This document shows positions 20,813 through 23,927 of a stretch of DNA of 27,918 nucleotides, one piece after another. The notes below the pieces were generated by a model. The model saw nothing but the letters and a program-made list of their open reading frames with translations, was not told the DNA's origin and searched no databases. Position numbers and translations under genes: made by a program. The DNA lies in the UHGV virus genome UHGV-0137059; one strand, given 5' to 3'. Each line of letters starts with the position of its first letter. The stretch's first letter is position 1. The stretch comes from a virus.

Positions 20813-20881
20813 ACAATGGAGTTTGTTTTTCACGCCCCTTTTTTACAATATTTCTTGTTTACAACATACAATCTTTCTTGT
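20813..20881. promoter_or_regulatory. Left operator with three 434-type sites (20813-20826, 20845-20858, 20868-20881) and pL reading rightward into N
   Basis: ACAATGGAGTTTGT, ACAATATTTCTTGT, ACAATCTTTCTTGT all fit ACAA(N6)TTGT. Confidence 0.75.
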
Positions 20882-20926: not shown

Positions 20927-20957
20927 TGCTCTTAAAAATTAAGCCCTGAAGAAGGGC
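20927..20957 (+). promoter_or_regulatory. nutL (boxA GCTCTTAAAAATTAA, boxB GCCCTGAAGAAGGGC)
   Basis: Matches recalled lambda nutL almost exactly; between pL and N. Confidence 0.85.
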
Positions 20958-21115: not shown

Positions 21116-21439
21116 ATGGATGCACAAACACGCCGCCGCGAACGTCGCGCAGAGAAACAGGCTCAATGGAAAGCAGCAAATCCCCTGTTGGTTGGGGTAA
21201 GCGCAAAACCAGTTAACCGCCCTATTCTCTCGCTGAATCGCAAACCGAAATCACGAGTAGAAAGCGCACTGAATCCGATAGACCTTACGGTGCTGGCTGA
21301 ATACCACGAACAGATTGAAAGCAACCTGCAACGTATTGAGCGCAAGAATCATCGAGTTTGGTATAGCAAGCCAAGTGAGTTCGGTATAACTTGTCAAGGA
21401 AGACAAAAGGTTAAAGGGAAATCCATTCCATTGGCATGA
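21116..21439 (+). CDS. N: Antitermination protein N (107 aa from ATG at 21116)
   Basis: MDAQTRRRERRAEKQAQWKAANPLLVGVSAKPVNRPILSLNRKPKSRVESALNPIDLTVLAEYH... matches recalled lambda N, including the arginine-rich motif. Confidence 0.95.
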   Translation: MDAQTRRRERRAEKQAQWKAANPLLVGVSAKPVNRPILSLNRKPKSRVESALNPIDLTVLAEYHEQIESNLQRIERKNHRVWYSKPSEFGITCQGRQKVKGKSIPLA

Positions 21440-21447
21440 GGTACGTA

Positions 21448-22317
21448 ATGAAGAAAATTGATTACAAGTCCATACCAAAACCAATAGACTCAGCATCAGA
21501 GCGAAAAAAACACAAAAAAGAGGCTGAAAAATTAGCAAATTATATCAGTTTTATTAGAAACAATGCTCACGGCGATGGCGACAGGAAGTTGCTTTCAGAT
21601 GCCCGGACCCAAGCGTTCAGCATACTTCGTAAGCAGATGCAATATCGTCTTCATCCAGGCTACATAATTGAAATTCGCCCGACTGAAAGACAATTGTTCT
21701 TATTAAACTCTGTCTTTGACTTTGTAAACGTAGTTGGAGATCTTATCGACAGGTCTGTAGATAAGGCTCCTGATACAAATAGTTTTCTTCTAACAAATAA
21801 AGAATACTTATATGGTAAATTTGGTATAAACGGATGGCAAAAATATGTACGATTCTTACGTGCATTCGTTGATGCGTATAAAAATTCCGACATGATTTAT
21901 ACATATTTGCCTGGTGGTAATAATTGTACGCTTTCGGCAGACAATAGAATATTCATACCTATACTTGGTCTTGGGCTGATTAATGCAGTAAATGAAAGAG
22001 ATGTTATAATTGTTAAGCAGTGGCGAAAGCATGAGGGATATAGATATCTGCCATGCTTTGATATATTAAAAATACAGAATAAATTCTATGTAAAAATTAA
22101 ATATAAAGAAGATGTTTTCTTCCTCAGAAAAAACAAAGATCTTTTACAAGAACTTTCTGGGACAATAGATGTCATCGTAGGTTCTAGGTTTATAAAAGAA
22201 CTGAAAGAAAGCAGGTCTTTCTCTCGTGTAGAGATAAGCGAGTCAGAGTTATGGGGTATATCAAATAATCCTGTAAACCACGCTCACCAACGAAATCCAA
22301 ACAAAAAGTGGTCATAA
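21448..22317 (+). CDS. Hypothetical protein (289 aa), strongly AT-rich cargo gene immediately downstream of N
   Basis: ATG at 21448 with GAGGT ribosome-binding site; base composition visibly much lower GC than flanking phage genes (long A/T runs, K/N/I/Y-rich product); no recognisable motif; followed directly by a terminator hairpin. Confidence 0.7.
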   Translation: MKKIDYKSIPKPIDSASERKKHKKEAEKLANYISFIRNNAHGDGDRKLLSDARTQAFSILRKQMQYRLHPGYIIEIRPTERQLFLLNSVFDFVNVVGDLIDRSVDKAPDTNSFLLTNKEYLYGKFGINGWQKYVRFLRAFVDAYKNSDMIYTYLPGGNNCTLSADNRIFIPILGLGLINAVNERDVIIVKQWRKHEGYRYLPCFDILKIQNKFYVKIKYKEDVFFLRKNKDLLQELSGTIDVIVGSRFIKELKESRSFSRVEISESELWGISNNPVNHAHQRNPNKKWS

Positions 22318-22340
22318 CCCGCTCAGGCGGGTTTCATTTT
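22318..22340 (+). terminator. Intrinsic terminator (tL-like) directly after the 289-aa ORF
   Basis: CCCGC-TCAG-GCGGG hairpin followed by TTTCATTTT. Confidence 0.6.
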
Positions 22341-22457
22341 CACGCAAACAACAGAATAAACACTGCACTGTGTATTCATTCCAACGAGTGAATACACGGA
22401 GCAATGTCGCTCGTAACTAAACAGGAGTCGACTTGTTCTGATTATTGGAAATCTTCT

Positions 22458-22487
22458 TTGCCCTCCAGTATGAGGGCAATTTTTTTG
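22458..22487 (+). terminator. Strong intrinsic terminator/attenuator hairpin immediately upstream of the coiled-coil gene ribosome-binding site
   Basis: 8-bp stem TTGCCCTC/GAGGGCAA with 6-nt loop followed by TTTTTTT, then GACGGAGG ribosome-binding site and ATG at 22499. Confidence 0.65.
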
Positions 22488-22498
22488 ACGGAGGATAT

Positions 22499-23467
22499 AT
22501 GAGTGAAGTAACAGATTTAGTTGTTATTGAAAAAGCAAATGCAATGACTGTATTTCAGTCTGCCGACCAGATTGAAGAAATCCTTCAAAAGGTTGAACGT
22601 GAAGTTATGTCCTTTGTGCCTGATATCACAACGGCAAAGGGCAGAAAGGAGATCGCTTCTCTGGCGTATAAAGTTGCGCAGACGAAAACATATCTCGATG
22701 GTCTTGGCAAAGACCTTGTTGCTGAACTGAAGGAAATTCCAAAGCTAATTGATGCCAACCGCAAGACAGTGCGCGATCGCCTTGATGAACTGAAAGCCAA
22801 GGCGCGCCAGCCTCTTACTGATTATGAGGAAGAACAGGCGCGGATTAAAGCCGAAGAAGAAGCTAAGGCAGCAGCTGAAGCTCTCGCAAAGCAAATTGAG
22901 TCTGACCATGAAATAGCGATTTTGATGGATCGCGAATTTGACCGCCAAAGAGAAGAGGCAAGACTCAAAGCGGAGCAGGAAAAGCGAGAGCATGAAGAAC
23001 GCTTAAAAAGAGAAGCTGAAGAGAAAGCCAGAGCAGAAGCCGAAGCAAAGGCAAAAGCCGAAATTGAAGCAGCAGCAAGGCGAGAAGCAGAAGCTAAGGC
23101 CGCAGCGGAACGTGCAGAGCGTGAACGCATTGAAGCCGAGCAACGAGCACAGCGCGACGCAAAAGAGGCAGCAGAACGAGCTGAAAGAGAAAAGCAGGCA
23201 GCAATTGAAGCAGAACGCAGAAAAGCACAGGAGGAGGCTGAACGAATCCGGCGCGAGGCTGAAGCAAAAGAGCAAGCCAGAATAGCAGAAGAAAAAAGAA
23301 TCAAGGAAGAAGAAGAGCGTAGAGCAAAGGATAAAGCTCACCGGAAAGAAGTAAATAACAAAATACTTGCTGACCTTATCAAGGTTGGCGCATCAGAAGA
23401 TGTTGCTAAAAATATCATAACAGCCATCGTAAAAGGCGAAGTATTCGCAACAAAAATAACCTACTAA
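22499..23467 (+). CDS. Hypothetical protein (322 aa) with long central E/R/K/A-rich single-helix or coiled-coil region
   Basis: ATG at 22499 with GGAGG ribosome-binding site; about 130-aa N-terminal domain, about 150 aa of charged repeats (AEAEAKAKAEIEAAARREAEAKAAAERAERERIEAEQ...), short C-terminal domain; not recognised. Confidence 0.7.
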   Translation: MSEVTDLVVIEKANAMTVFQSADQIEEILQKVEREVMSFVPDITTAKGRKEIASLAYKVAQTKTYLDGLGKDLVAELKEIPKLIDANRKTVRDRLDELKAKARQPLTDYEEEQARIKAEEEAKAAAEALAKQIESDHEIAILMDREFDRQREEARLKAEQEKREHEERLKREAEEKARAEAEAKAKAEIEAAARREAEAKAAAERAERERIEAEQRAQRDAKEAAERAEREKQAAIEAERRKAQEEAERIRREAEAKEQARIAEEKRIKEEEERRAKDKAHRKEVNNKILADLIKVGASEDVAKNIITAIVKGEVFATKITY

Positions 23468-23491
23468 TAAAACCAACATAAGGAACCACCC

Positions 23492-23623
23492 ATGATTTAC
23501 GCAATCGCGGGAGGCGCTCGCATGGGTGCCTTCCAACTAAATGAATCTTTACTTGAACGAATCACCCGTAAATTACGTGACGGATGGAAAAGAGTTGAGG
23601 TCTTATTATGCGCAATGAAATAG
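23492..23623 (+). CDS. cIII: cIII-like FtsH inhibitor (43 aa)
   Basis: Hand translation MIYAIAGGARMGAFQLNESLLERITRKLRDGWKRVEVLLCAMK; core ESLLERITRKLRDGWKR matches recalled lambda cIII; ribosome-binding site AAGGA. Confidence 0.75.
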   Translation: MIYAIAGGARMGAFQLNESLLERITRKLRDGWKRVEVLLCAMK

Positions 23624-23760
23624 CCATCAATCACCAGATGCTTCGTGCTGCACAGAACAAAGCAGTAATAGCCAGATTTATTGGTGATTCAAAAATGTGG
23701 CTTGAAGCAAATAAAGCGATGAAATCAGCTATCAACCTTCCGTGGTATCGCAGGAAATGA
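23608..23760 (+). CDS. kil: Kil-like host cell-division inhibitor (50 aa)
   Basis: Hand translation MRNEIAINHQMLRAAQNKAVIARFIGDSKMWLEANKAMKSAINLPWYRRK; IARFIGDSKM resembles lambda Kil; overlaps cIII 3' end as kil/cIII do in lambda. Confidence 0.6.
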   Translation: MRNEIAINHQMLRAAQNKAVIARFIGDSKMWLEANKAMKSAINLPWYRRK

Positions 23761-23927
23761 GTTTTACAGATAACTGGTCAGACGAAGAATTCATTCGTCA
23801 GATGAAAGAATTAATCGGTAACGAAGGAGATATTCATGTCACTTGCAACCACAGTGAAGGAGAGCAAGTTACAGAGACGCATGTACACGCAGCAGGCGTT
23901 AATGTATCGCCAGAAGGGAGATCGTGA
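23757..23927 (+). CDS. Small acidic hypothetical protein (56 aa), possibly an Arf-like accessory protein upstream of erf
   Basis: ATG at 23757 overlaps kil stop (ATGA); product MSFTDNWSDEEFIRQMKELIGNEGD...; identity uncertain. Confidence 0.45.
   Translation: MSFTDNWSDEEFIRQMKELIGNEGDIHVTCNHSEGEQVTETHVHAAGVNVSPEGRS

Follow-up and report, generated by a model that had tools for sequence, protein, structure and literature searches.

How should the 180-bp spacer between the 289-aa gene (21448-22317) and the 322-aa gene (22499-23467) of this lambdoid prophage be read: as a leader that conditions the expression of the downstream gene, or as a gene in its own right? An earlier note on this DNA had described a structured leader with two terminator hairpins and, between them, a perfect inverted repeat taken for a protein operator or an RNA processing or binding site. 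The DNA analysed (hereafter the window, 27,918 nucleotides of the virus genome UHGV-0137059) is a lambdoid prophage that matches a locus of E. coli 1368KP with 100% identity. Its + strand carries the early-left operon in the order 434-like operators, nutL, N, 289-aa gene, spacer, 322-aa coiled-coil gene, cIII, kil and erf-type recombination genes (Table 1). When nutL is aligned with that of lambda, boxB is identical and boxA differs by 1 base; together with the N gene it sits in the same transcription unit, upstream of both terminators. The ACAAT…TTGT operator-like repeats found upstream of nutL (20830-20880) look 434-type. The prophage is a typical lambdoid mosaic, combining 434-type operator-like repeats, a lambda-type nutL/N and erf/P22-type recombination genes. 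Our analysis indicates that the spacer is very probably a composite of known elements of the lambdoid early-left operon, namely the terminator of a nun module (terminator 1) followed by an island made of a hairpin and of PreS/tL2a. The leader reading had missed that the 88 nt going from the repeat to the T-run correspond to a trans-acting, Hfq-dependent small RNA, PreS, of which terminator 2 is the 3' end.

Table 1. Coordinates of the features of the early-left operon discussed in the text (positions in the window).
Feature	Position	Strand	Description
nutL	20928..20957	+	boxA-like GCTCTTAA (20928-20935); boxB GCCCTGAAGAAGGGC (20943-20957); N antitermination loading site
N antitermination protein gene	21116..21439	+	annotated in RefSeq at the E. 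coli 1368KP locus (100% identity)
289-aa gene	21448..22317	+	PHROG 12139 (function unknown); A+T-rich; follows N; same gene at the same place in phage 434
Terminator 1	22316..22342	+	7-bp G+C-rich stem AACCCGC/GCGGGTT (22316-22333); loop TCAG; interrupted U-tract
Pre-PreS hairpin	22364..22403	+	core 22370-22397 (12-bp stem, CAAC loop); lower stem GCAC/GAGC
PreS (LPR1) homolog, 88 nt	22399..22486	+	5' stem-loop GAGC/GCUC (22399-22412), single-stranded seed, terminator hairpin with U-tail
PreS seed	22434..22451	+	TGTTCTGATTATTGGAAA; identical to lambda; region removed in lambda lpr1Δseed; contains M1 (CTG) and M2 (GAA)
Terminator 2 (lambda tL2a)	22458..22486	+	8-bp stem, 6-nt loop, T7; 3' end of PreS
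Shine-Dalgarno and 322-aa coiled-coil gene	22490..23467	+	GGAGG (22490-22494); ATG 22499; homolog of Sf6 gene 33; cIII and kil next

The folding of the region was compared with that of shuffled sequences. Its 196 nt fold at -69.1 kcal/mol, against -44.1 ± 3.9 kcal/mol for dinucleotide shuffles (z = -6.4), none of the 200 shuffles being as good, and the minus strand folds worse (-59.7 kcal/mol). This z-score, together with a repeat expected 0.01 times per window, shows that the three structures described earlier are real, and each hairpin is stable when folded as RNA (-11.4 kcal/mol for terminator 1, -14.2 kcal/mol for the repeat and -22.6 kcal/mol for its extended form, -13.2 kcal/mol for terminator 2). 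Both terminators are picked up by a consensus terminator scan, on the + strand only. An intrinsic-terminator-like hairpin is indeed present where terminator 1 had been placed (22318-22340), with limits that become 22316-22342: the stem overlaps the TAA stop codon of the 289-aa gene (22315-22317), with TTTCATTTT running from it to 22342. Terminator 2, given before as 22458-22487, is present too, with the stem TTGCCCTC/GAGGGCAA at 22458-22479 and the T7 run at 22480-22486. Its T-run stops at 22486, which is 3 nt (not about 10) ahead of the Shine-Dalgarno sequence and 12 nt ahead of the ATG, the latter being at 22499 and not at 22500.

The inverted repeat GTGTATTCA-N10-TGAATACAC is exact at 22370-22397, as described, and the chance expectation for such a pattern is 0.01 per window even with 3 mismatches allowed. 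The 9 bp first counted are nevertheless only a part of the structure. As RNA, the repeat forms a 12-bp stem, including one U·G pair, closed by a CAAC tetraloop, and the flanking GCAC and GAGC extend it to approximately 17 bp over 22364-22403; the folding of this extended hairpin is equalled by just 0.05% of random 46-nt windows taken from the sequence. In the lower stem, GCAC (22365-22368) pairs with the GAGC that forms positions +1 to +4 of PreS, leaving a conserved A×A mismatch opposite +2. The hairpin core ends at 22397 and PreS +1 is at 22399, with 1 nt between them.

Terminator 1 is best understood from the gene that precedes it. The 289-aa protein ends in 14 residues, VNHAHQRNPNKKWS, that HK022 Nun shares exactly at its own C-terminus, and this tail also matches PHROG 5632. 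The phage 434 counterpart, a 289-aa 'Nun C-terminal peptide-containing protein', has an annotated terminator behind it and ea10 after that, and the terminator 1 sequence is found there too, 3' of the Nun-tail gene. Terminator 1 also follows the stop codon of nun in HK022, the sequence from there to the hairpin being likewise the same. Because the Nun tail is identical and the same terminator comes after nun in HK022, terminator 1 is identified as native to the nun-type module (HK022, HK75, 434), downstream of its gene, and it arrived with the 3' end of nun when another coding body was joined on. It is rare, being found in 1-3 of 137 PreS loci, and lies outside the widely conserved block. The 289-aa protein may be a fusion reusing the RNA polymerase-contacting tail of Nun, the HK022 transcription-arrest protein. 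For the two flanking proteins (289-aa and 322-aa), Pfam and PADLOC searches gave no match and PHROGs gave solely families of unknown function.

The rest of the spacer has a much wider distribution. In a BLAST search against 50,697 phage records, the spacer appears as a mosaic of two conserved pieces, 22250-22485 (96.6% to phage 434) and 22346-22560 (98.6% to Sf6 and mEp234), and the segment 22346-22487 aligns almost base-for-base with the ral-ea10 intergenic segment of lambda, with 434 and with Sf6. The matches start at 22346, 22365 or exactly 22399 and stop at 22483-22490. Across 137 loci anchored at PreS +1, the identity to the window is at least 0.86 within an island of approximately 22365-22486, and at background level, with unrelated flanks, on both sides of it. 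After the T-run come ea10 (lambda, 434), an Sf6 gene 33-like gene (the window, Sf6, mEp043), gene 17 (P22) or the cIII leader (HK97, HK022). Since PreS remains unchanged in front of these different downstream genes, we consider it as an autonomous module. The conserved island occurs in hundreds of lambdoid phages and in thousands of E. coli prophages. It also has a name in the Sf6 record, where bsq4 (AF547987, 24156-24268) is equivalent to 22365-22477 of the window, i.e., to the hairpin and PreS island, but is treated as a conserved recombination junction ('boundary sequence') of lambdoid mosaics. The sequence comparison suggests instead that the conservation of bsq4 reflects a functional sRNA gene and its hairpin.

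The small RNA in question was described in lambda. LPR1, later renamed PreS, is an Hfq-bound sRNA of the ral-ea10 spacer found by RIL-seq, its 3' end is tL2a, and its +1 sequence, GAGCAATGTCG, is defined by the cloning and T7-template primers P810, P1103 and P1107 (10.1101/2024.10.31.621285). This +1 sequence maps to 22399, and we therefore place the prophage copy at 22399-22486. The copy and lambda PreS are identical at 84 of 88 positions (95.5%), without gaps, which places it above the cut-off of the conservation search made by the preprint authors (at least 92% identity to lambda LPR1 over its length; 10.1101/2024.10.31.621285). The four substitutions are at 22428, 22470, 22478 and 22486 (the end of the T-run), all of them outside the seed. 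At the 3' end, a G+C-rich terminator hairpin is followed by poly-U, as expected of this sRNA. In the host genome that carries this exact prophage, the dnaA-dnaN junction has exactly the sequence used for the reporter in the preprint, and the duplex predicted between the PreS seed and this junction has an energy of -32.1 kcal/mol. The prophage copy thus resembles lambda PreS in its position in the pL operon, its +1 sequence, its seed, its terminator architecture and its host target site. It differs in its flanks, with the Nun-tail gene upstream instead of ral and the Sf6 gene 33-like gene downstream instead of ea10; the expression measurements are those made on lambda.

In lambda, PreS is seen as bands of approximately 88 and 68 nt that are enriched on Hfq; it is restricted to the lytic cycle, absent in lysogens and visible at 10 min or less after induction (10.1101/2024.10.31.621285). 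It raises the translation of dnaN by opening the ribosome-binding site and represses alaS, compensatory mutations confirming both effects, and deletion of its seed leads to less phage DNA replication and to a lower spontaneous phage yield (10.1101/2024.10.31.621285). These functional claims come from the preprint (10.1101/2024.10.31.621285) and from a 2025 review that cites it and names PreS as an established phage sRNA. By homology, expression, Hfq binding, termination efficiency and N read-through would be similar in this prophage. PreS has no model in Rfam 15, in which the window gives no match at the gathering score and only chance-level matches below it, and PreS is not annotated in any of the GenBank/RefSeq records inspected. 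A 32-aa ORF that starts inside PreS (22404-22502) was considered and rejected as coding; it has no Shine-Dalgarno sequence, and its ATG is ATA in the P22-type copies.

Variants and matches of PreS were also observed elsewhere. P22 (record 1501-1610) and other Salmonella/P22-type phages carry diverged PreS bodies of approximately 100 nt, in which an additional insert precedes a terminator stem of another kind and the seed, GUUCUGGUUA…, is altered, the 5' stem-loop GAGC/GCUC being invariant throughout. These diverged bodies may be host-adapted variants of PreS. A scan of genome contigs with the seed gave 21 matches, mostly on short or roughly 48.5-kb low-coverage contigs from unrelated taxa, and exact matches were found in assemblies of Pseudoxanthomonas, Shewanella, Bradyrhizobium, Kitasatospora, Neobacillus and others. 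The matches in unrelated taxa are almost certainly due to contamination of the assemblies by lambda DNA and are of no use for describing diversity.

Terminator 2 is the counterpart of lambda tL2a, reportedly presented by Luk and Szybalski in 1983 as the first site of the tL2 terminator cluster of the lambda early-left operon. In the Sf6 record, the homologous T7 hairpin is labelled 'homology to phage lambda; tL2A', and our literature search on 'tL2a' returned unrelated papers only. The hairpin and T-run of this prophage are homologous to those of lambda and, as in lambda, nutL and N of the lambda type lie upstream in the operon; the differences are a stem closed by U-A in this prophage and by U·G in lambda, and a run of 7 T against 6. 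Owing to the U-A closure and the longer T-run, the prophage copy would be slightly stronger on paper. By analogy with lambda, terminator 2 is expected to act both as the Hfq-binding 3' end of PreS and as a transcription barrier before the 322-aa gene. The earlier note had proposed that the expression of this gene is conditional, on N antitermination or on a dedicated regulator. The first part agrees with our data, since a lambda-type nutL and N are found upstream on the same strand and terminator 2 is homologous to tL2a, so that N-dependent expression is expected; the second, the dedicated regulator, is unsupported.

By extension from lambda, the following sequence of events can be proposed. 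Upon induction of the prophage, transcription from pL would cross nutL; polymerases without N modification would stop at terminator 1 or at tL2a, and those modified by N would continue past both into the 322-aa gene, cIII, kil and the recombination genes. Transcripts ending at tL2a, or trimmed back to it, would be cut just 3' of the hairpin, thereby releasing PreS. If it behaves as in lambda, PreS would then bind Hfq via its U-tail and pair with host mRNAs via its seed at 22434-22451, and it would activate dnaN translation and repress alaS, aiding phage DNA replication.

To describe the hairpin that precedes PreS, we collected 141 loci, from the phage records and by scanning IMG/VR for the 5' end of PreS, GAGCAATNTCGCTCGTAAC. 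A strong hairpin stands at the same place in 140 of them, built from at least four unrelated stem families, to which wobble and loop variants are added: the lambda type (GTGTATTCATTC/GAGTGAATACAC), the type of P22 and mEp043 (TATAGCAGATT/AGTCTGCTATG), a third (AATGCGGA…TCCGCATT) and a fourth (AATGACCATT…AGTGGTCATT). These families reassort with lambda-type and P22-type PreS bodies and with different downstream genes. HK022 is the sole locus of the 141 without an intact hairpin, because of an IS-like insertion. There (X16093, ~430-450 and ~1480-1500), the hairpin loop is split by approximately 1.1 kb bearing the signature of an IS element, with terminal inverted repeats GGCTTTGTTGAATAAAT / ATTTATTCAACAAAGCC and a 9-bp target duplication, TCATTCCAA; we take this insertion to be of the IS903 type.

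The conservation of pairing is not uniform along the helix. Counting from PreS +1, the pairs -2 to -9 are kept in all but one case among 26 distinct sequences, with 2-5 pair types at each position, and there is hardly any variation in the three pairs at the top (A-U, U·G, U-A). A wobble or a mismatch occupies position -1, +1 forms a C-G pair, and +3 and +4 pair with the conserved upstream GCAC; +2 is almost always mismatched (A×A in 21 and G×A in 4). In one variant, the mismatch and the wobble have become Watson-Crick pairs and the stem is perfect over 18 bp. RNAalifold predicts the hairpin independently, with 8 compensatory pairs in which both sides have changed. In the specified structure 95% of the cells are paired, compared with 22-52% when the partners are slid, and none of 500 shuffles reaches the observed covariation score, it being understood that the hairpin families represent a few swap events and not many independent substitutions. 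The conserved U·G at -11, and an A-to-G variant that makes another U·G, are neutral in RNA and break the DNA palindrome. When further copies of the repeat or enriched half-sites were searched for across the window, none was found above chance, so the search for the repeat elsewhere that the earlier note had suggested shows it to be unique; a scan for sigma-70-like -10/-35 or promoter-like sites found none between 22085 and 23763. The conserved U·G pairs, the strand asymmetry, the single copy and the absence of a promoter therefore point to a + strand RNA structure and not to a protein operator. The operator proposed earlier is thus not retained, its half-sites being swapped with the pairing kept, and the alternative offered with it, an RNA processing or binding site, is a better fit to these pairing-conserving swaps and to the G·U wobbles of the + strand.

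What, then, could be the function of this RNA structure? Our favoured hypothesis is that the hairpin helps to define the 5' end of PreS, as a processing determinant. We go further only tentatively, the chances being somewhat below even, in proposing that it is a dedicated maturation signal by which an endonuclease, RNase III being the most plausible one, would be guided to free PreS from the transcript of pL, and that the 'boundary sequence' would be a mobile hairpin-plus-sRNA cassette instead of a recombination scar. The signal would consist of a variable 8-bp middle, a near-invariant top, a weak pair at -1, the A×A mismatch opposite +2 and the GCAC/GAGC lower stem. A comparison can be made with CpxQ and SroC, sRNAs that derive from an mRNA 3' end or an internal terminator and are cut by RNase E in A/U-rich single-stranded RNA. 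As for these sRNAs, PreS shares its terminator with a longer transcript, would need an endonucleolytic 5' cut and has an Hfq-type 3' end; unlike theirs, its 5' end lies right against a conserved helix.

Three features make RNase III a candidate: +1 lies inside the lower stem, the cut would fall 12-13 bp from the loop, and U·G and G-C pairs stand between the predicted staggered cuts in the lambda type. T7 R1.1, the lambda N-leader and sib are hairpin substrates of RNase III, and a known site for this enzyme lies in the same operon as the PreS hairpin; searching the literature for sites of RNase III within this operon brought up nothing specific. The pre-PreS helix resembles these substrates in being weak or mismatched near the putative cut and in the 12-13 bp from cut to loop. 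It is shorter, however: approximately 18 positions with 1-2 mismatches (~17 bp), of which approximately 5 lie below the putative cut, as compared with two turns or so (~22 bp) for RNase III sites, and its cleavage is a hypothesis. At RNase III sites mapped in vivo, pairing is the rule at the two positions that separate the staggered cuts, G-C being usual there (PMC6212723). The U·G and G-C found between the predicted cuts in lambda-type hairpins fit this rule, whereas the C×U and U·G of P22-type variants break it.

The main rival is a passive hairpin, which would stabilise the 3' end of the upstream mRNA against 3' exonucleases after PreS has been cut off, or would act as a folding insulator that prevents variable upstream sequence from pairing with PreS, another nuclease such as RNase E making the PreS 5' end. 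In loci of the HK97 and P22 types, the hairpin does stand approximately 5 nt after the upstream stop codon, in a conserved GAATAAGCAC context, which agrees with such a role, as does its position at a mosaic junction beside many different upstream genes, suited to an insulator; a 12-bp stem is also short for RNase III. We put the chances of this explanation clearly below even. Against it stands the exact register between the base of the hairpin and PreS +1, which all families keep, as they do the weak -1 pair and the mismatch opposite +2; a terminator hairpin is, besides, already available to the upstream gene in this window. Furthermore, the motif of RNase E is A/U-rich, and the 5' end of PreS, between G and GAGC, is unlike it.

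Far less probable is that PreS would be a primary transcript from its own promoter overlapping the repeat, the hairpin being then a promoter-associated DNA element. The preprint clones PreS from a defined +1 and is silent on the origin of the 5' end, on its biogenesis and on the upstream hairpin (10.1101/2024.10.31.621285), which leaves room for such a promoter, but our scan detected neither a sigma-70-like -10 nor a -35, and the would-be -10 coincides with the 3' arm of the hairpin, which is completely different in the four families. The absence of lambda PreS in lysogens and its presence at 10 min or less after induction fit a dependence on pL (10.1101/2024.10.31.621285). The least probable of the explanations, and a very improbable one, is a purely cis-acting leader in which a dedicated phage regulator would gate the 322-aa gene through the repeat, as its operator in DNA or its site in RNA: a perfect 9+9 palindrome that is very improbable by chance and that is placed between two terminators, upstream of a gene, would suit it, but the repeat occurs just once in the window, without enrichment of half-sites, the interval from 22085 to 23763 lacks a promoter-like site, P22, mEp043 and other loci wholly replace the stem sequence and keep its pairing and position, the stem variants reassort freely with PreS bodies and downstream genes, the U·G at -11 and the A-to-G variant are tolerated in RNA and would disrupt a DNA palindrome, and the island is constant while the gene behind it varies (ea10, Sf6 gene 33-like, P22 gene 17, cIII).

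Taken together, these data concern an element that is already known, and the new lead is a hairpin, conserved in structure and swapped in sequence, that lies flush with the PreS 5' end. The added value of the analysis is the correct annotation of this prophage, in which the spacer should read as a PreS sRNA gene and tL2a and not as an unknown leader, along with covariation evidence for a structured element at the 5' end of PreS. Such a hairpin gives a concrete, testable handle on the maturation of PreS, a point left open by the preprint, and the combination of hairpin and sRNA offers a functional reason for a classic 'boundary sequence' of lambdoid mosaics.
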